From a phage: a stretch of 24,537 nucleotides of DNA. The stretch lies in NCBI GenBank assembly GCA_025881525.1, contig GCA_025881525.1_4849.1. The stretch is one strand, 5' to 3'. How positions within the stretch are numbered: the stretch's first letter is position 1; each line of letters opens with the position of its first letter. This document shows, piece by piece, positions 135 to 22,459 of this stretch. Both the position numbers and the translations under genes were made by a program. Under the pieces are notes generated by a model. The model had not been told where the DNA came from, made no database searches, and saw only the letters and a program-made list of their open reading frames with translations.

Positions 135-163
135 TTGACGTAGAATCGCAGCTGATGTAGATT
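135..163 (+). promoter_or_regulatory. sigma70-like promoter candidate TTGACG-17bp-TAGATT for early plus-strand block
   Basis: TTGACG 135-140, 17 bp spacer, TAGATT 158-163; about 30 bp upstream of first ATG; overlaps conserved TTGACGTAGAAT motif. Confidence 0.4.
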
Positions 164-3128: not shown

Positions 3129-4542
3129 ACGCCTGTCCGCTCTGGCAATCGAAAAGCTGGAAGCGCAGATTGATGACGCGATGACAGATGTTGCAGAGTC
3201 AGCTATCTTTGGCATCTGCGATATGCAGAAGAACGTCATAAAGCGGTTAAGGATGACTGCCACTGGCGTTGATGACGTGACCAATGCAACAACTCATGCT
3301 GACCACCTTATTCCGGCAAAACTTGAGAGACTGCTTTACCCCAAACGATTCAAGTTTGTCTACGGTGGCCGTGGGTCAGGGAAAACGAGAACGATTATCA
3401 CCATCCTTACTGAGCGCGCAAGGTTTCGACCTGACCGCTTTGCATGCTTTCGTGAGATTCAGCAATCCATTGAGGATTCAAGCTATCAGGAGCTTGTTGA
3501 TGAGATAGCCCGCAAGGGTGAATCGGCAGAGTTCCGTGTTATCAACAACGAGATAACACACAAGAAGACCAAAGCTAAATTTCGCTTTAAGGGTCTGTAT
3601 CGCAACCAGACTACGGTTAAAGGTTTTGCTGGCATCACCGTAGGCTGGGTAGAGGAAGCTGAGAACGTCAGCCAGACAAGCTGGGATATTCTTGTGCCTA
3701 CCATCCGTGCCGCCAATTCCGAACTGTGGTGTTCATTCAACCCCAACAAGGAAACAGACCCAACATGGAAAAACTGGATTGCCCCCTATCACTCACAGAT
3801 GGTTGATGGCATATTCGAAAATGATGAAATTCTGATTATCGAATGTAACTATTCAGACAACCCGTGGTTCTGGGATACGCCTCTGCCATCCGCTATGGAG
3901 CAAATGAAGCGCGTCGATTTCGACCGCTACATGTGGATATGGGAAGGCAAATTTAATAAACGCAGCGACGAGCAGGTCTTCGGCGGCAAATGGCGCATTG
4001 ATAACTTTGAGGTTAAACCTGAATGGCATGGCCCATACTTCGGGATGGACTTCGGATTCTCCACGGATCCTACCGCGATGGTTGAGGTTTATATCGAAGA
4101 GTTACCGGGTGGGCGGCGCAACATTTATATTAATCGCGAGTACGGCAAAGTTGGTCTTGAGATTACCGATACACCAGCCGCGATGGAGCAATCATTTCCG
4201 ATGGCTAAGCGCGCACGATGGTATGCCGACTGTGCGCGCCCAGAAACCATCAGTCACATCAAGCGCTCTGGATTTGATATTCACCCGTGCACAAAATGGC
4301 CAGGGAGTGTTGAGGATGGCGTAACGTGGCTGCGTGGGTGCGACAGCATCATCATCCACAATCGATGCAAGGAAATGCAGAATGAAGCGACAATGTACAG
4401 CTACAAGGTTGATAAACTGACTGGGAACGTGCTGACTGATATTGTTGATGCATTTAACCACTTCTGGGATGCAGTTCGCTACGCACTTAATGACCATATC
4501 GTTCAGCGTGGCAGTGGAATGCTCATCCGGCGCAGGCGATAA
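3118..4542 (+). CDS. terminase large subunit
   Basis: Walker A motif FVYGGRGSGKT near N-terminus, C-terminal nuclease-like region, about 475 aa; ORF track starts at TTG 3100, ATG 3118 preferred. Confidence 0.9.
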   Translation: MARKRLSALAIEKLEAQIDDAMTDVAESAIFGICDMQKNVIKRLRMTATGVDDVTNATTHADHLIPAKLERLLYPKRFKFVYGGRGSGKTRTIITILTERARFRPDRFACFREIQQSIEDSSYQELVDEIARKGESAEFRVINNEITHKKTKAKFRFKGLYRNQTTVKGFAGITVGWVEEAENVSQTSWDILVPTIRAANSELWCSFNPNKETDPTWKNWIAPYHSQMVDGIFENDEILIIECNYSDNPWFWDTPLPSAMEQMKRVDFDRYMWIWEGKFNKRSDEQVFGGKWRIDNFEVKPEWHGPYFGMDFGFSTDPTAMVEVYIEELPGGRRNIYINREYGKVGLEITDTPAAMEQSFPMAKRARWYADCARPETISHIKRSGFDIHPCTKWPGSVEDGVTWLRGCDSIIIHNRCKEMQNEATMYSYKVDKLTGNVLTDIVDAFNHFWDAVRYALNDHIVQRGSGMLIRRRR

Positions 4543-4558
4543 ATCCGCATCGCCACAC

Positions 4559-4590
4559 TTGACCAATCTACACCGAGCGCATAGTATAAT
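4559..4590 (+). promoter_or_regulatory. promoter-like element TTGACC then TAGTAT (17 bp spacer) or TATAAT (20 bp spacer)
   Basis: Read directly; shares gcatagtat...tctacatca with the minus-strand reading of the 9781-9800 region. Confidence 0.3.
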
Positions 4591-4618
4591 CTACATCAGG
4601 CTTACCGGAGATATCACT

Positions 4619-4825
4619 ATGCGCAGCTATGCAGGATTTACACAGGAGGAAAAAGAGCAGGTCTATTCACTGGCGCGGGCTGGCGTGCCTGATGATGTGA
4701 TTTGCCGTAGGTATGACATCGACGAGGATTTCCTGCTGCGCGTTATTGATGATGTTTTCGTTAACCTGCAAGAGAAACGCGGGTACAAGGGTATCTGCTG
4801 CAAGAATGATTTTTTGAGAGGGTGA
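4619..4825 (+). CDS. hypothetical protein (68 aa)
   Basis: ORF track 4442-4825; ATG 4619 with GGAG RBS preferred since upstream part overlaps terminase. Confidence 0.5.
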   Translation: MRSYAGFTQEEKEQVYSLARAGVPDDVICRRYDIDEDFLLRVIDDVFVNLQEKRGYKGICCKNDFLRG

Positions 4826-5876: not shown

Positions 5877-5885
5877 TGATATAAT
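5877..5885 (+). promoter_or_regulatory. extended -10 promoter element TGATATAAT upstream of portal gene
   Basis: Perfect TGnTATAAT directly after HNH stop codon, about 30 bp before portal ATG. Confidence 0.35.
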
Positions 5886-7329: not shown

Positions 7330-8260
7330 CGCAAGGCTTCCACAGCCGCGCATATCGCAGAGTCTGACTGACCCGTTAGGAGCTGCAACTCGCCTGTCGA
7401 AGATGGACAAGGTGATAACGCGCAAATACAAACAACTAAGGACTCGTGCGCTTGAGTTGTTTCGATCTATTCCTCATAGTCAGGCTAACGCAGAATCGAG
7501 CGGCCTGTATTTCTACGATTTCAGCAGCGCGCGAGCTGCCACTTTCATGGATGAGCTACAGGCGCTGATTGACGAGATTCTGCTTGAAGGTGATGATTTC
7601 GGTCACGGCAGAATGTGGGCCAATGTGTTCATCGGTGATGCATACCAGGCTGGAACGCAGAAGGCCAACTCAGAGCTGTCAAGTCTTTCTCCGGTTTATG
7701 CTGAGCAAAGACCTATTGCTGCGATACTCTACAGTGAGCCTTACCTGAATCGACTCCAACTGGCTTATACGCAGGGATATTCAGACTGGCGCGGATTGAG
7801 TGATTATTCCCGCCAGCAACTGGCATCTGTCATTATGGAAGGCATTGCCCGTGGTGCTAATCCTCGCGATGTTGAAGCTGACATTGTTAAGCGTTTGGAT
7901 GTGTCACATAGTTACGCGAAACAGATAGCGCAAACCGAAATCACCGGAACGCTCAGGCAGGCTAACAGGCGAGAAGTTATTGAGGCGCGCGAAGAGTTAG
8001 GTATTGAAACGGTGATGCTGTGGCAGTCGGCATTAATGCGCACAACCCGCCAGACGCACGGGTCTAAACATGGACGGTTTTTTACTCCAGAGCAGATTGA
8101 TGATTTCTACTCTCGTGATGGCAATAAATATAATTGTCACTGCGCACAGGTACCAACACTGCTAATGGATGGCAAGCCAGTCATTCTTGAGTCATCGCAG
8201 GAAAGGCTCGATAAGCAGCGCGAGGCGTGGCAGGCGAGCAATAAAAAAGCCACCAAGTAG
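7310..8260 (+). CDS. head morphogenesis protein, Mu F-like / SPP1 gp7 family
   Basis: C-terminal conserved region [15 protein letters not shown] and YNCHCA typical of the family; ORF track start 7229 lies inside portal, ATG 7304/7310 preferred. Confidence 0.8.
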
Positions 8261-8275
8261 GTGGCTTTATATTAT
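8241..8275. terminator. bidirectional hairpin terminator (AGCCACC-aagta-GGTGGCT) with A-run upstream and T-rich tract downstream
   Basis: Read directly; convergent transcription units meet here; Mu F-like gene stop codon lies in the loop. Confidence 0.55.
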
Positions 8276-9762: not shown

Positions 9763-9780
9763 CACCTCACTCATCGTTTG

Positions 9781-9836
9781 ATGTAGATACTATGCACCAC
9801 CACTCAATCTACGTCAACAGTCATTGTGATAGAATT
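9781..9836. promoter_or_regulatory. divergent promoter region: TTGACG -35 (minus, 9812-9817) and extended -10 TGaTAGAAT (plus, 9827-9835), built around the 15-mer AATCTACGTCAACAG
   Basis: Read directly; located between divergently oriented gene blocks. Confidence 0.45.
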
Positions 9837-9861: not shown

Positions 9862-10140
9862 ATGAAGCTATCGCAACGCGGCGCGGAGGCTCTCGGAATC
9901 ACCGATGCCGTGGATATATCGCCTTACATCACCACTGAGACAACGCAGAATCAGTTTGATGCACTGACAAGTCTTGCTGCCGACATCGGCATTGACTCGT
10001 TCCGCAAATCAACGCTTCTGAAGAAACACAATCTCCGCTGCTTCTCATGTGTCGTTGCTCATTTCATCGTGTGGGGCGAGAAGACTGGCGACAAAGCAAA
10101 ACGCAAAGCTGAAAAAGAGGTTTACTGGTATGGCTATTAG
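9862..10140 (+). CDS. GH24 (T4/P22-type) lysozyme-like remnant lacking the catalytic N-terminal core (92 aa)
   Basis: C-terminal half QNQFDALTSLAADIGIDSFRKSTLLKKHNL resembles P22 gp19 NQNQYDALCSLIFNIGKSAFAGSTVLRQLNL (from memory); no E-x8-D-x5-T catalytic block; GGAGG RBS. Confidence 0.5.
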   Translation: MKLSQRGAEALGITDAVDISPYITTETTQNQFDALTSLAADIGIDSFRKSTLLKKHNLRCFSCVVAHFIVWGEKTGDKAKRKAEKEVYWYGY

Positions 10141-10594
10141 CAAAAACATGAAAGCGTTTCTGGATATGCTGGCATACAGCGAGGGCACGGATAACGGGCG
10201 ACAGAAAACCAATAATCATGGCTATGATGTGATTGTTGGTGGCTCGTTGTTTACCGACTACTCAGACCACCCGCGCAAGCTGATTAGCCTGCCTAAGCTG
10301 GGCATCAAATCCACCGCCGCCGGTCGCTATCAGGTGCTGGCTAAATTTTATGATGCATACAAAAAGCAGTTGCGTCTGCCTGACTTCTCTCCCGCATCTC
10401 AGGATGCTATTGCAATGCAGCTAATCCGTGAATGCAAGGCCACCGCTGATATTGAGGCTGGTCGCATTGCTGATGCCATCCATAAATGCCGCTCCCGCTG
10501 GGCTTCATTGCCGGGCGCTGGTTATGGTCAGCATGAGCAGAAACTGGATAAGCTGATTCAGGTATACAAAGAGGCTGGCGGAGTTGTGGCATGA
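10130..10594 (+). CDS. R: endolysin, lambda R-type lytic transglycosylase
   Basis: KAFLDMLAYSEGTDNGRQKTNNHGYDVIVGG...DYSDHPRKL...AGRYQ closely matches lambda R as recalled; ATG 10130 with AAAGAGG RBS preferred over track start 10049. Confidence 0.9.
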   Translation: MAISKNMKAFLDMLAYSEGTDNGRQKTNNHGYDVIVGGSLFTDYSDHPRKLISLPKLGIKSTAAGRYQVLAKFYDAYKKQLRLPDFSPASQDAIAMQLIRECKATADIEAGRIADAIHKCRSRWASLPGAGYGQHEQKLDKLIQVYKEAGGVVA

Positions 10595-10830: not shown

Positions 10831-11302
10831 ATACTGGCGACCGCTGGCAATTATTATAATTGCTGCTGCTGGTGCGTTGTGGGTGCGTGGCGAAATTATC
10901 AGCTACGGCGACCAGCGATACGCAGAAGGCAAAGCTCAAGCAATCGCAGACCAGAAGGCCGCAGACGAACAAGAGGAGCAACGACGCAATGCAGAACTGC
11001 AAAAAATTCAGGCCGACGCACAGCAAAGAATTGATGCTGCGCGCAATGATGCTGTTAATGCTGCCGCTAAGTCTGGCAGGTTGCAGCAACAACTCACCAG
11101 TATCCGCAAGCAGCTCGTCGGATATTTCACCTCTGAGTCCATTGGCAACCCAGCCGCAGAAACCGGAGTTTTGCTTGGAGACGTGCTCAGCAAATCTGTC
11201 GAAAGAAATCGACAACTGGCAGATTATGCTGACAGGGCGAGAGAAGCGGGATTAGCGTGTGAGGCGCAGTACAATTCGCTGCGTAATAAAAAAGCCCCGT
11301 AA
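10811..11302 (+). CDS. Rz: i-spanin (Rz-like)
   Basis: N-terminal TM (LAIIIIAAAGALWV) followed by charged coiled-coil periplasmic domain; GGAGG RBS; hosts an embedded lipoprotein ORF. Confidence 0.7.
   Translation: MMSILAKYWRPLAIIIIAAAGALWVRGEIISYGDQRYAEGKAQAIADQKAADEQEEQRRNAELQKIQADAQQRIDAARNDAVNAAAKSGRLQQQLTSIRKQLVGYFTSESIGNPAAETGVLLGDVLSKSVERNRQLADYADRAREAGLACEAQYNSLRNKKAP
11034..11255 (+). CDS. Rz1: o-spanin (Rz1-like), embedded in +1 frame within Rz
   Basis: Lipoprotein signal with lipobox MLRAMMLLMLPLSLAG-C, Pro/Ser-rich mature part; fully nested in i-spanin gene. Confidence 0.6.
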   Translation: MLRAMMLLMLPLSLAGCSNNSPVSASSSSDISPLSPLATQPQKPEFCLETCSANLSKEIDNWQIMLTGREKRD

Positions 11303-11318
11303 TGGGGCTTGTGTTTAA
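11285..11318. terminator. bidirectional hairpin terminator (GCCCC-gtaat-GGGGC) flanked by A-run and T-rich tract
   Basis: Read directly; spanin stop codon in loop; convergent gene blocks meet here. Confidence 0.6.
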
Positions 11319-12001: not shown

Positions 12002-12271
12002 TTACTCAGTAGTATCAGCTTCCGGCGCGCCAATGCAATCATTGAGGTCTTGCTCGTCATTTTCAAAAACGAACGACCACGATGGGTATTCGGCGAAAAA
12101 TTTATACCCATACTTATCAATCCCCTCTATTCTCGCGCATCTGCCAGCATCAACTTTTTTCAGTGTCATTGACTCAAATTGAATGTCATCATATGACTGC
12201 TCGATGCTTTGCGATTTATATATACGCACCGGACCGCCAGTACCAGAGTAAACCAGTTTGCCTTTAATCAT
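12002..12271 (-). CDS. hypothetical protein (89 aa)
   Basis: ATG 12271 overlapping upstream stop (ATGA) with GGAGAGAG RBS preferred over track start 12283. Confidence 0.55.
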   Translation of the reverse strand: MIKGKLVYSGTGGPVRIYKSQSIEQSYDDIQFESMTLKKVDAGRCARIEGIDKYGYKFFAEYPSWSFVFENDEQDLNDCIGAPEADTTE

Positions 12272-12492
12272 TTCTCTCTCCACTTAATCATCTCGCGTCG
12301 CGGCATTGTGACGCGGTTGTATTCATCAACATTAAAATTGGCCCGAATCAAATCATACATCTCATCCTTTGGCATATCAGCCAGCGCCACATAGCAACGG
12401 GCAAAGTAGCGAACATCACGGAGTGTCAGCGGCTGCCGCTTCTCCACAATGCTGGTGATAATGTCCATCGGCTCGCGTCGTGGTCTTGGCAT
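12268..12492 (-). CDS. hypothetical protein (74 aa)
   Basis: First ORF of minus block, AAGGAG RBS on minus strand. Confidence 0.55.
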   Translation of the reverse strand: MPRPRREPMDIITSIVEKRQPLTLRDVRYFARCYVALADMPKDEMYDLIRANFNVDEYNRVTMPRREMIKWREK

Positions 12493-12519
12493 ATTTACTA
12501 CTCCTTTTTCGAAATTTAT

Positions 12520-12575
12520 TATTGACGAATCTACGTCACTTAGTCAATACTGTTGGTGTAGAATGATTCTACCAC
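12520..12575. promoter_or_regulatory. divergent regulatory region with TTGACG, AATCTACGTCA motif, inverted repeat TGACG-N6-CGTCA and 15-bp palindrome GTAGAATgATTCTAC (12558-12572)
   Basis: Read directly; between divergently transcribed blocks. Confidence 0.4.
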
Positions 12576-12596
12576 AACGGAAAAGGTGATGTGGAA

Positions 12597-12794
12597 ATGC
12601 AATATAAAGAAATAGCAGCGAGATACCAGAAGGAAGTTCGCGAGGTTATGGAAATCCTTAATGTTCGCGAGGATACCATTAAGTTTGTGGAAACTGCCAT
12701 GTGCTCACTGGCACTTGAAGCGGAGGTTGCAGGTCGTGAAAAGGCTGACGAACTTATATCTGCGGTGGTTTATAGTTCAACCAGTAACGGTTGA
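12597..12794 (+). CDS. hypothetical protein (65 aa)
   Basis: ORF track starts at GTG 12591; ATG 12597 with AAGGTG RBS preferred. Confidence 0.5.
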   Translation: MQYKEIAARYQKEVREVMEILNVREDTIKFVETAMCSLALEAEVAGREKADELISAVVYSSTSNG

Positions 12795-13262: not shown

Positions 13263-13514
13263 ATGAGCGCACCATATATGCCGATGATGAATGACGAAAT
13301 GCTGCTTGAGTGTCCGTTTTGTGGAGATGCTCATGCGTATATAGATAACGATGGTCCTGGCGCGTTTTATGTCGCTTGCTCGCAGTGTGGGTGTGGTACT
13401 GATGAGTGGCCTCACCAAGCATCAGCAGTGAAGTCATGGAATACTCGCAACGGTCACCTCTACACCGCAGGCGACTTCAATCAGGTAGCAGAGGAACGCG
13501 ATTATGGATTATAA
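13263..13514 (+). CDS. Lar-family restriction alleviation-like zinc-ribbon protein
   Basis: CPFCG ... CSQCGC ... WNTR arrangement typical of Lar family small proteins (from memory). Confidence 0.55.
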   Translation: MSAPYMPMMNDEMLLECPFCGDAHAYIDNDGPGAFYVACSQCGCGTDEWPHQASAVKSWNTRNGHLYTAGDFNQVAEERDYGL

Positions 13515-13992
13515 GTCACAAATCATGCGCGTGATTGTCAATCATCCTGGAGCAACGCGTGCATATATTGAGAAGCATTGCGGCGGAAAGCATTCAAGCA
13601 CCACAACGCACCGTCTGCATGAAATGCTTGCGCTTGGCTTCATTCGTCGCGAGAAGTCAGTGATTCGTGGTGGTAAGTGGCAGTATAAATATTTCATCTC
13701 TGATGATGCGCCTGGAATTGATGATGCGATTAAGTGCCATTTGCTTGATAACGCTGGCGCAGAAGTGAAAGATATTAGCTCAGCCACTGGCATTGATTAT
13801 CGCATCGTGAAAAGCCGCATTCGCATCATGTTTCATAACGGAGATGTGACGCGAAGCTATGATCATCATAAGAAGTTTTGGCGTTATTCATGGAAGGAGA
13901 AGGAAGTAAATGTGAGCAACCTTTTTAATTCACTCCTTCGCAACGTAAGAGGTCAGCATGGGGAAAACCAAACGCAAGAAGCAAGAGTATGA
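13504..13992 (+). CDS. putative DNA-binding protein with two winged-helix-like repeats (162 aa)
   Basis: Two similar segments (around NHPGATRAYIEKH and DNAGAEVKDISSATGIDYRIVKSRI); inferred from pattern only. Confidence 0.5.
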   Translation: MDYKSQIMRVIVNHPGATRAYIEKHCGGKHSSTTTHRLHEMLALGFIRREKSVIRGGKWQYKYFISDDAPGIDDAIKCHLLDNAGAEVKDISSATGIDYRIVKSRIRIMFHNGDVTRSYDHHKKFWRYSWKEKEVNVSNLFNSLLRNVRGQHGENQTQEARV

Positions 13993-15022: not shown

Positions 15023-15145
15023 ATGAATATGATCCCTATCACTTACTTTCTCACGCTATACGCACTCACCAATTCGCCACTGTTTGCACTGGCTACCGCC
15101 TCATGGTGTTATATCTCCCTGTGTTATAATTCGACCACAAACTAA
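15023..15145 (+). CDS. hypothetical small hydrophobic peptide (40 aa)
   Basis: Strong AGGAGGT RBS 6 nt upstream; translation MNMIPITYFLTLYALTNSPLFALATASWCYISLCYNSTTN. Confidence 0.3.
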   Translation: MNMIPITYFLTLYALTNSPLFALATASWCYISLCYNSTTN

Positions 15146-18138: not shown

Positions 18139-18170
18139 TAAAAAAGGGGGTTTATCCCCCTTCTTTGTAT
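18136..18170. terminator. bidirectional hairpin terminator (AAGGGGG-tttat-CCCCCTT) flanked by A-run and T-tract
   Basis: Read directly; minus-strand HNH gene stop codon lies in the loop. Confidence 0.65.
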
Positions 18171-18958: not shown

Positions 18959-19045
18959 AAAAGTCACTCCTAATTTGGTTCTATATTACTACAGGTGTAA
19001 TGAGTGTGCTACAATTGACCTGCATTAACTCATGAGGATATTTAA

Positions 19046-20846: not shown

Positions 20847-21090
20847 GATTTATCTTCACCCATCCTTTGCTTGCACCGTGCGATAAGATAAGACCTTTCT
20901 TGCGCAACGCCTGAAGGCGACGATCAAGGACTCGAAATCCCTCATGTGGTTTTGTTGATAACTTTCTGCATACAGAATGAATACCGTTACCACCAATGCC
21001 GCCATAAAAGTGGATCTCAGCGAATGTTTTTGGCTTGTTAAAATCCAACGCATTCATAATCATTGCGTCGAGTTCTTCATACTTACTCAT
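20836..21090 (-). CDS. putative winged-helix DNA-binding protein (84 aa)
   Basis: C-terminal VLDRRLQALRKKGLI resembles winged-helix recognition region; pattern-based. Confidence 0.45.
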   Translation of the reverse strand: MSKYEELDAMIMNALDFNKPKTFAEIHFYGGIGGNGIHSVCRKLSTKPHEGFRVLDRRLQALRKKGLILSHGASKGWVKINHER

Positions 21091-21899
21091 TTCATCTTCT
21101 CCAGAATTGCCATAACTTCGTGAATGTCAGCAACAGGAATCTGAATAAATTCCTCATCCTCTGCCACCACATGACCAGCAGGTAGAATTACATGGTCGGC
21201 TGGCTTCAATAACTCAATCAGGCGGTCTACTGGCTTAATCTTTTTCGACTTCAGCACTTTGGCTGTGACCTTGTCCTTGCCTTGCGCTTTGGCTTCTTCG
21301 ACTGCCTCGTCGATAACTTTAACCGCATCATCGCCATGTTCACGCGTTACTGCTACGGCATTTGCATAGCTGATTTGTCCTGCACTGATGCGCGCTTTTA
21401 CTTCTGCTGGCACATCACCCAGCGACAGGTGCATTTGCACGTCAGATACTGAGCGGCCTACCTTCTTGGCGATTTCTTCATTTGTCCAGCCAAATCCTTT
21501 CAATCGCGTGTAAGCCTTTGCACGCTCAAACGGGTCAAGCTGCTTGCCCTGACTGGATGACACCATGAAGGCGATTTTGTCCGCCTCGTCGCCAGTGAAA
21601 TCCTTGCACTCAATGCGAACGATTGGTGCGCCGCGTTCAATGGCTCGTAGTGCACCAAGATAGCGATGCTGACCATCAAGAATGCGGATTCCTTTGTCGT
21701 CAGGGATAACTGTTAATGCTGGCAATGGCTGACCTGATTCCCAGCACTGAGCGAAATATTCAACGTGTTGCTCATCTGCTTCACGGATGTTATATCCCGG
21801 CTCCAGATAGATTCGCTCCACTGGCACGAGATAGGTTTTGTTAACAGCAATACCGTTGCGCGTTTCTTTGTCTGAATAGATTTTGCTTAGTGTTTTCAT
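21087..21899 (-). CDS. ParB-like nuclease-domain protein (ParB/Srx fold with DGQHR motif) plus HTH region
   Basis: IRILDGQHRYLGAL motif; downstream segment VQMHLSLGDVPAEVKARISAGQISYANAVAV resembles ParB HTH region. Confidence 0.75.
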   Translation of the reverse strand: MKTLSKIYSDKETRNGIAVNKTYLVPVERIYLEPGYNIREADEQHVEYFAQCWESGQPLPALTVIPDDKGIRILDGQHRYLGALRAIERGAPIVRIECKDFTGDEADKIAFMVSSSQGKQLDPFERAKAYTRLKGFGWTNEEIAKKVGRSVSDVQMHLSLGDVPAEVKARISAGQISYANAVAVTREHGDDAVKVIDEAVEEAKAQGKDKVTAKVLKSKKIKPVDRLIELLKPADHVILPAGHVVAEDEEFIQIPVADIHEVMAILEKMK

Positions 21900-22249: not shown

Positions 22250-22310
22250 TTTCTACGTCACTAACTATAAACACGCCATCAATCTACGTCAACAGGAATA
22301 TGCTAAAATC
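22250..22310. promoter_or_regulatory. divergent promoter region with two direct copies of TCTACGTCA (22252-22260, 22283-22291); minus: TTGACG-17-TATAGT; plus: extended -10 TGcTAAAAT (22301-22309)
   Basis: Read directly; 15-mer AATCTACGTCAACAG identical to the copy at 9806-9820. Confidence 0.45.
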
Positions 22311-22339: not shown

Positions 22340-22459
22340 ATGGGTTCCACCAATTCGCCTTCTCGTTCACGCGCTACTGGCAACACCAAAACTGGCGGCA
22401 AAACTGGCGCTGTGAAGCCAAACGGCTCCACTCGTTCACCATCACGCGGTAAAAAATAA
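22340..22459 (+). CDS. hypothetical small basic Ser/Thr/Gly/Lys-rich peptide (39 aa)
   Basis: GGAG RBS 8 nt upstream; TAATG overlap with next gene; low complexity. Confidence 0.3.
   Translation: MGSTNSPSRSRATGNTKTGGKTGAVKPNGSTRSPSRGKK

Follow-up and report, generated by a model that had tools for sequence, protein, structure and literature searches.

Palindromes in a divergent control region of Skate-group siphophages: probable by-products of packed promoter elements and of a recurring 11-nt motif, a predicted operator

Introduction

Do the operator-like palindromes that lie between two divergent gene blocks of a virulent siphophage mark the sites of a symmetric repressor, or do they have another origin? 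This question is raised by a stretch of phage DNA of 24,537 nucleotides (nt) (contig GCA_025881525.1_4849.1 of the GenBank assembly GCA_025881525.1), hereafter referred to as the window. The window belongs to the Skate/swi2/SeSz-2 group, virulent siphophages of Salmonella, Escherichia coli, and Shigella, and is around 90% identical to vB_EcoS_swi2, C1, DS8, and others. At 12.5 kb, a gap of 104 nt separates two divergent blocks of small genes, and this arrangement is kept in the annotated relatives. An earlier note on this DNA had pointed out two inverted repeats in the gap and had interpreted them as operators of a dimeric repressor that may control a switch between the two blocks. The comparison presented here suggests that the 104-nt region is probably a compact bidirectional control region, in which the palindromes are by-products of the packing of its elements and an asymmetric motif, repeated at promoters throughout these genomes, is the predicted operator.

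Results

The palindromes coincide with predicted promoter elements and motif copies

The two inverted repeats and the two divergent gene starts (12492 on the minus strand and 12597 on the plus strand) were located exactly where the earlier note had placed them. The "shared motif" also mentioned there proved to be an asymmetric 11-12-mer, TTGAYGTAGATT, with the strict form TGRYGTAGAWT. Conservation was followed in 28 distinct variants of the region, obtained from IMG/VR contigs and complete genomes. The elements recognized are the following, with lengths of open reading frames (ORFs) given in amino acids (aa):

12268-12492, minus strand: 74-aa ORF, first gene of the leftward block, with its start at 12492
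12518-12547, minus strand: candidate second leftward promoter PE- (TTGACT 12547-12542, 18 nt, AATAAT 12523-12518), with 10/12 matches the best score of the region
12522-12527, plus strand: -35 hexamer TTGACG of the rightward promoter P+, TTGAC(G/C/T) in 28/28 variants
12523-12538: palindrome 1, TGACG-aatcta-CGTCA, arising where the inverted motif site 1 and the -35 hexamer of the plus strand overlap
12528-12539, minus strand: motif site 1 (GTGACGTAGATT; strict 11-mer TGACGTAGATT), in the P+ spacer, (A/T)TCTACRTCA in 28/28 variants
12546-12551, plus strand: -10 hexamer AATACT of P+ after an 18-nt spacer, CAATACT invariant in 28/28 variants, with an inferred start around 12558
12553-12564, plus strand: motif site 2 (TTGGTGTAGAAT; strict 11-mer TGGTGTAGAAT), over the inferred P+ and PL- starts, TGACGTAGATT or TGGTGTAGATT in relatives
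12558-12572: palindrome 2, GTAGAATgATTCTAC, junction of motif site 2 (left arm) and the minus-strand extended -10 element (right arm)
12566-12574, minus strand: extended -10 promoter PL- (TGGTAGAAT), directed towards the 74-aa gene, TGnTA(C/G)AAT in 28/28 variants, with an inferred start around 12559
12597-12794, plus strand: 65-aa ORF, first gene of the rightward block, with an in-frame GTG alternative at 12591

Both repeats thus overlap predicted -35, spacer, -10, or start positions. The hexamers of P+ match the sigma-70 consensus at 9 of 12 positions and are both kept in all of the variants; their distance falls within the 16-18 nt of sigma-70 promoters, and they lie upstream of a gene with a ribosome-binding site. 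PL- has a TG one base upstream of a TAnnnT hexamer, as expected for an extended -10 promoter, and its variants (TGGTACAAT, TGGTAGAAT, TGATACAAT, TGATAGAAT, and TGTTACAAT) change only at positions that are free in such an element. The right arm of palindrome 2, read on the minus strand, is TTGTGGTAGAAT, nearly identical to the promoter of the lysis genes, TTGTGATAGAAT (9824-9835). As for PE-, its -35 hexamer is conserved and its -10 hexamer is poor in many relatives. The footprints that polymerase should make at P+ and at PL- lie entirely over one another; these two promoters should therefore be mutually exclusive.

The composition of both repeats follows from these elements. The motif starts with TGACG, like the TTGACG hexamer; therefore an inverted copy placed directly after the -35 reads TGACG-N6-CGTCA, which is palindrome 1. 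The end of the motif and the extended -10 element both contain TAGAAT, and when they stand head to head, 1 nt apart, the result is GTAGAAT-g-ATTCTAC, which is palindrome 2. The latter extends imperfectly to 13-nt arms (12552-12578), and a third symmetry detected by a repeat finder, TATTGACGAA/TTAGTCAATA, coincides with two opposed -35-like hexamers.

Relatives keep the elements and lose the symmetry

The frequency of such repeats was compared with expectation. Repeats with 5-nt arms and a 6-nt spacer are at background level (25 in the window vs. 28.0 ± 5.8 in shuffles), and the pattern of palindrome 1, allowing up to one mismatch, was present in 49 of 100 shuffles. Perfect repeats with arms of at least 7 nt and spacers of 0-3 nt numbered 15 in the window vs. 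7.5 ± 3.2 expected, and one vs. 0.04 expected within the 104-nt intergenic region (P ~0.03); palindrome 2 is therefore unusual only when the test is limited to this region. No second copy of either palindrome was found elsewhere in the window. A scan of IMG/VR with the exact 15-mer returned mostly unrelated chance matches, and only about five came from related contigs of 45-48 kb.

Conservation in relatives, which the earlier note itself had chosen as a measure of its proposal, was low: palindrome 1 was intact in 9 of the 28 variants and palindrome 2 in 6. The first decays where the motif has T for C, or where the -35 hexamer ends in C or T. At the position of the second, 19 variants are 5 bp shorter than the window and read TTATTGACGTAGATTGTACC, and one Klebsiella phage has CTGGTGTAGATTGTAAC. 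A copy or near-copy of the motif at site 2 is nevertheless kept across the 28 variants, with one of them diverging, and in the common shorter form this site overlaps the -10 element of PL- by several bases. In Vi II-E1 (L019), a C-to-T change breaks palindrome 2 and preserves TGATAGAAT; the substitutions in this variant and in L010 conform to the extended -10 consensus rather than to the dyad. In Citrobacter phage K1M, the elements are spaced as in the window (TGGTGTAGATT-g-ATTGTATCA), neither palindrome is present, and site 1 is flipped onto the plus strand, as TTGACGTAGATA.

A 5-bp indel at 12553-12577 was also observed, which splits the region into a palindromic type (6 variants) and a motif type (19 variants, e.g., L005 and L007, plus Klebsiella phage BUCT541); depending on it, site 2 lies next to the leftward -10 element or runs into it.

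These results indicate that relatives retain the individual elements while losing the symmetry, and that the unit that recurs is asymmetric. As far as sequence comparison goes, the palindromes are real but ordinary by-products of element packing: the regulatory idea of the earlier note was partly right, and the dyad-operator mechanism is unsupported. Regarding the proposed switch between the blocks, a dense regulatory region with overlapping promoters and operator-like sites was indeed found, and the idea of a switch is reasonable, although with a different set of parts; the dyad symmetry appears incidental.

An asymmetric 11-nt motif recurs at promoters across the phage group

The motif was found in five non-coding regions of the window, usually paired (135-163, 4565-4599, 9778-9817, 12528-12577, and 22250-22292). 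With up to one mismatch, TTGACGTAGATT has four copies in the window vs. 0.09 expected, and GACGTAGA has five vs. 0.28. The strict form TGRYGTAGAWT occurs seven times vs. 0.11 expected, one of the seven being TGGTGTAGAAT of site 2 at 12554-12564. In swi2, SB28, BUCT541, and pYD38-A, the strict copies are 12, 12, 12, and 9, respectively, vs. 0.16-0.18 expected, and K1M carries 10 copies of the motif. All of the copies in swi2 with up to one mismatch are intergenic, in a genome that is 90% coding. In an unbiased count of 8-mers in the intergenic DNA of K1M, the motif was recovered right after the Shine-Dalgarno words. Its sequence is identical across the phages of Escherichia, Salmonella, Klebsiella, and Citrobacter. 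A literature search returned no paper with this motif in a bacterial or phage context, and promoters are not treated in the papers on Skatevirus, Swiduovirus, and the BASEL collection.

The other promoters of the window that carry the motif are predicted as follows:

135-163, plus strand: P1, in which TTGACGTAGAAT gives the -35 and, 17 nt on, cTGATGTAGATT gives the -10
4559-4599, plus strand: P2 (TTGACC, 17 nt, TAGTAT), driving a 68-aa helix-turn-helix (HTH) gene, with inverted motif copies after the -35 and after the -10
9778-9817, minus strand: P3 (TTGACGTAGATT as the -35, 17 nt, CATAGT, then an inverted ATCTACATCAA), back-to-back with the lysis promoter
22250-22292, minus strand: P5 (TTGACGTAGATT as the -35, 17 nt, TATAGT, then GTGACGTAGAAA), driving a ParB/KorB-like operon

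A total of 81 sites in six genomes were classified. In 21 of them, TTGACG is used as a -35 with a TAnnnT hexamer 17 nt downstream, and in another 18, TAGAWT serves as a -10, 17-18 nt after a TTGACA-like hexamer. The other 42 sites fit neither register on their own strand; they are found inverted, within spacers or spanning start sites. Conservation is equally strong in both halves of the motif, the one required by the polymerase and the one that is not. Between the Escherichia and the Klebsiella phages, P5 shows no change in its motif, its -10, or its second site, while the 11-nt spacer separating them drifts; in P3, lineages keep the second site but differ in its orientation. The motif is a single short enriched sequence, nearly always intergenic and located on promoters, and conserved beyond what a promoter needs, as dispersed operators are.

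Additionally, an exact 10-bp tandem of two motif copies (TGACGTAGAT-TGATGTAGATT) was observed in swi2 (L022, 44981-45001) and in K1M (L109, 7176-7196). It runs over the stop codon of the gene for a conserved protein of 138 aa and lies ahead of exonuclease/recombinase genes.

A second class of putative promoters precedes the structural and lysis genes

The promoters of the small-gene and replication blocks carry a strong -35 (TTGACG/TTGACA). A different type was found at five other positions of the window:

5877-5885, 9827-9835, 15122-15130, 19007-19015, and 22301-22309, plus strand: TGnTAnAAT elements without a recognizable -35, which immediately precede the portal, lysis, scaffold/capsid, post-capsid, and head-tail blocks, respectively

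The same pattern was seen in swi2, SB28, and BUCT541; across the four genomes, elements of this class precede the portal, scaffold/capsid, head-tail, tail, and major-tail genes, and they occur at around twice the chance frequency. The pattern has the look of a distinct "late-type" promoter class.

In two divergent regions (9806-9835 and 22281-22309), the motif that forms the leftward -35 sits 7-9 nt upstream of the TG of a rightward extended -10, i.e., at around -30 of the rightward promoter. This layout is also present in swi2, SB28, BUCT541, and K1M. A protein bound to the motif at these places could influence both promoters, repressing one of them.

Candidate binding proteins

Several small proteins encoded in the window were considered as ligands of the motif, in addition to the 74-aa protein at the head of the leftward block:

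4619-4825, plus strand: 68-aa predicted HTH protein, candidate binder, with its own promoter P2 and two motif copies
13504-13992, plus strand: 162-aa protein with two winged-HTH-like segments (phrog_1687, "MarR family"), candidate binder, in the P+ operon
21087-21899, minus strand: 270-aa protein with ParB-HTH/KorB domains, considered as a binder

The 74-aa protein is predicted to be a winged helix with a basic N-terminal arm (AlphaFold model with a predicted local distance difference test, pLDDT, of 83). Its gene is always syntenic with the control region, and its family (76 clusters, mean column identity of 75%) has the invariant sequence MPRPRR...KRQPLsLRDVRYfArCY. The top matches in a fold search were all forkhead, MarR, or winged-helix domains, none of them significant (E >=0.25). 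The gene of the 68-aa protein did not stand out in the ORF list, where a longer ORF in the same frame, starting with TTG (4442-4825), covers it; its start was assigned to the ATG at 4619, around 32 nt past the promoter TTGACC, 17 nt, TAGTAT. The model of this protein (pLDDT 82) is a three-helix HTH with NarL/GerE/DosR, CENP-B/paired, and ArdK DNA-binding domains as best, non-significant, fold matches, and the K1M homologue, 66% identical, is annotated as "sigma-70 region 4". Searches of Pfam, PHROGs, and PDB sequences with the two proteins flanking the control region and with the 68-aa protein gave no informative family. The 74-aa predicted winged-helix protein and the 68-aa HTH protein are considered the leading candidates. 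An asymmetric site of 11 bp would be well matched by a monomeric winged helix; this is a lead rather than a result.

The rightward block driven by P+ includes a Lar-like protein and the double winged-HTH protein of 162 aa. The identity of the latter is only 36-38% in the Klebsiella phages (BUCT541), which have the motif unchanged, and the first of its recognition helices is different there. Conservation of the ParB/KorB-like protein, a tempting candidate given the parallel with KorB of RK2, reaches 98-99% within the Skate group and 81% in the Klebsiella phages. Its gene is cleanly missing from Salmonella phage SB28 (L107, 14409-15357), in which only a C-terminal remnant is left; since this phage keeps 12 copies of the motif, the protein was discarded as the global binder and, if a binder, is probably not the only one. 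The 138-aa protein, which all of the genomes conserve, was also discarded: its alignment, inspected by eye, resembles a nuclease and not a regulator, and it has no Pfam match and only a PHROG of unknown function.

Other features of the window

At 1-125, the window begins inside a region of (C)CCCACG repeats (10-16, 74-80, 86-92, and 105-111, with an inverted copy at 55-61), in a large non-coding region upstream of P1. The equivalent region of swi2, of around 500 nt, has different repeats (CCGGTAAC). The cluster could be an origin, an iteron set, or a packaging site. A very basic 39-aa ORF, rich in Ser, Thr, Gly, and Lys (MGSTNSPSRSRATGNTKTGGKTGAVKPNGSTRSPSRGKK; 22340-22459, plus strand), is the first gene after an extended -10 promoter and is 97% conserved in swi2 and 90% in SB28. 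The endolysin is encoded by two overlapping ORFs of around 92 and 154 aa (9862-10140 and 10130-10594, plus strand), annotated likewise in swi2, SeSz-2, and SB28. The first ORF corresponds to the central part of the Phage_lysozyme domain. A frameshift, a gene that has been split, or a lysin made of two parts could account for the arrangement. The places where convergent blocks meet (8246-8268, 11292-11310, and 18140-18166) carry strong hairpins, rich in GC and with T-runs on both strands, similar to bidirectional terminators.

Discussion

A model for the control region

The motif is conserved whole, always lies between around -35 and +10, and occurs in any orientation and with variable spacing between paired copies. 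On these grounds, we are moderately inclined to consider it the operator of a trans-acting DNA-binding protein, most likely encoded by the phage, although this step is inferred. An asymmetric 11-mer, present in either orientation and at variable spacing, is a poor fit to a classic dimeric repressor on a symmetric operator. The regulator, a monomer or a flexible oligomer, would instead occupy the -35, the spacer, the -10, or the start site in whichever orientation the motif has there. By keeping RNA polymerase out, it would repress around ten promoters at the head of the small-gene and replication blocks. At 12.5 kb, P+ would start near 12558 and drive the rightward block, and PL- would start near 12559 and run into the 74-aa gene. 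The two promoters would exclude each other sterically, with site 1 lying within the P+ spacer and site 2 covering both predicted starts.

A bolder extension, which we regard as possible but doubtful, is that one small phage protein, the 74-aa winged-helix or the 68-aa sigma-region-4-like HTH protein, acts as a monomer on this mimic of the sigma-70 hexamers and runs a genome-wide switch from early to late transcription in virulent siphophages of the Skate/Rouf type. Around ten -35-dependent promoters would then be occupied at once, early transcription would be turned off, and the overlapping extended -10 promoters of the lysis and structural genes would be freed; the 12.5-kb region would be the control point of the regulator's own gene.

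Several observations weigh against the motif being the operator of a phage protein. All of the promoters described in this phage group are consensus predictions with inferred start sites. The motif holds both a -35-like and a -10-like hexamer and is used as one or the other at 39 of the 81 sites, so part of its conservation could stem from RNA polymerase. It is invariant while the candidate regulators diverge to 36-54% identity, which also fits a conserved host factor. The fold searches with the 74-aa and 68-aa proteins were both non-significant (best E 0.25-0.27). Finally, the spacings of the paired sites (10, 17, 21, 24, 26, 28, and 31 nt) have no helical phasing; hence cooperative binding is not indicated.

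Alternative explanations

That the palindromes are locus-specific symmetric operators, through which a dimeric repressor switches the two blocks, is very improbable. Both repeats exist in or beside core promoter elements, a palindrome with 7-nt arms is unusual in an intergenic region of this size, and a predicted DNA-binding protein is encoded next door; however, palindrome 1 is at chance frequency, neither palindrome has a second copy, the substitutions in L019 and L010 respect the extended -10 and not the dyad, K1M has an equal layout without symmetry, and the recurring unit is asymmetric. The small fraction of variants in which the repeats are intact largely refutes this proposal. A stem-loop formed by palindrome 2 at the 5' end of the rightward or the leftward transcript, stabilizing it or controlling its translation, is the least credible of the explanations considered. 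A 29-nt segment does fold to -9.9 kcal/mol (z = -2.9), but the z score is only -1.45 in the context of the transcript and the hairpin is absent from 22 of the 28 variants; furthermore, no Rfam family reached the gathering score in the window, and none appeared at E <=1 in 12400-12700.

The other two alternatives concern the motif itself. It could be intrinsic to promoters, a fused module of -35-like (TTGAYG) and -10-like (TAGAWT) hexamers read only by the host RNA polymerase, which would create strong or overlapping promoters. The 39 sites in which one half acts as a genuine hexamer at the canonical spacing of 17-18 nt agree with this, as does the invariance of the motif across hosts with an essentially identical sigma-70 while the phage regulators diverge. 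Nevertheless, we consider this main rival of the phage-operator reading unlikely, given that the unused half is as strictly conserved (TAGATT after a -35; TGAYG before a -10, and not at the TGn position of an extended -10), that 42 of the 81 sites are outside a promoter register on their own strand, and that sites are retained through orientation flips between lineages. Alternatively, the phages could exploit a conserved enterobacterial protein that binds the motif, which would explain why it is identical in phages of four host genera despite divergent phage proteins. This seems improbable: the literature search gave no bacterial context for the motif and, to our knowledge, no host-factor consensus matches it, those of RcsAB, DeoR, FNR, Fur, ArgR, the OmpR family, and the P22 Arc operator differing in half-site or spacing. 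The predicted phage-encoded regulator remains the reading we prefer.

Comparison with known systems

Dispersed operators are known for global repressors of phages and plasmids such as C1 of phage P1, KorA/KorB of RK2, and ArdK of R388; the operators of C1 are asymmetric and those of KorA/KorB are palindromic. As in these systems, the motif has many copies per genome, each on a promoter, single or paired and including inverted overlapping pairs, and one short sequence would link scattered transcription units into one regulon. Unlike them, the phage is virulent and no lysogeny module was seen in it, the binder is only a candidate, and the motif has just 11 nt and doubles as a -35 or -10 hexamer. 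The ParB/KorB-like protein of this phage, moreover, is dispensable for motif retention, as judged from SB28.

AsiA of T4 and gp39/gp76 of the Thermus phage P23-45 switch transcription from -35-dependent early promoters to extended -10 late promoters. The two classes predicted here, with a strong -35 or with TGnTAnAAT and no recognizable -35, are similar, but those proteins act on RNA polymerase, whereas in this phage group a DNA motif marks the -35-dependent class, and the timing of the classes is inferred from gene content. The MotA box of T4 middle promoters has a fixed position and orientation. Like that box, the motif is a phage-specific short sequence that, around -30, replaces or overlaps the -35; in contrast, it occupies at least three registers (-35, spacer, -10, +1) and both orientations. 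An activator site of the MotA-box type was discarded for this reason.

Operators of the Cro/cI or Arc/Mnt type resemble the 12.5-kb region in lying between divergent promoters, on core elements, and next to the gene of a small putative DNA-binding protein, but here the symmetry fails to persist in relatives, and the unit that is repeated has none. Warman and colleagues reportedly described, in 2021, bidirectional promoters that arise from the symmetry of the -10 element. In the variant of the window, two TAGAAT hexamers do face each other on opposite strands; however, they are adjacent instead of overlapping, only the one on the minus strand has a TGn, the one on the plus strand has no usable -35, and the arrangement is lineage-specific. 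Since this geometry does not fit, a bidirectional promoter with a shared -10 was also discarded.

Significance

For sequence-only scans, the locus is a caution: promoter hexamers placed head to head readily yield perfect operator-like palindromes. For the phages themselves, the motif and the dichotomy between -35-dependent and extended -10 promoters appear, from the genomes compared, to be an undescribed feature of a widely isolated group. Lytic siphophages of Salmonella, E. coli, Klebsiella, and Citrobacter that carry the motif, members of the BASEL collection among them, form a large group in growing use and are candidates for therapy and biocontrol. The finding would gain interest if it is true that one small protein runs a genome-wide early-to-late switch through the motif. 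The motif and the two-class architecture offer a testable handle on temporal gene control in these phages, together with a short list of small proteins that may exert it.

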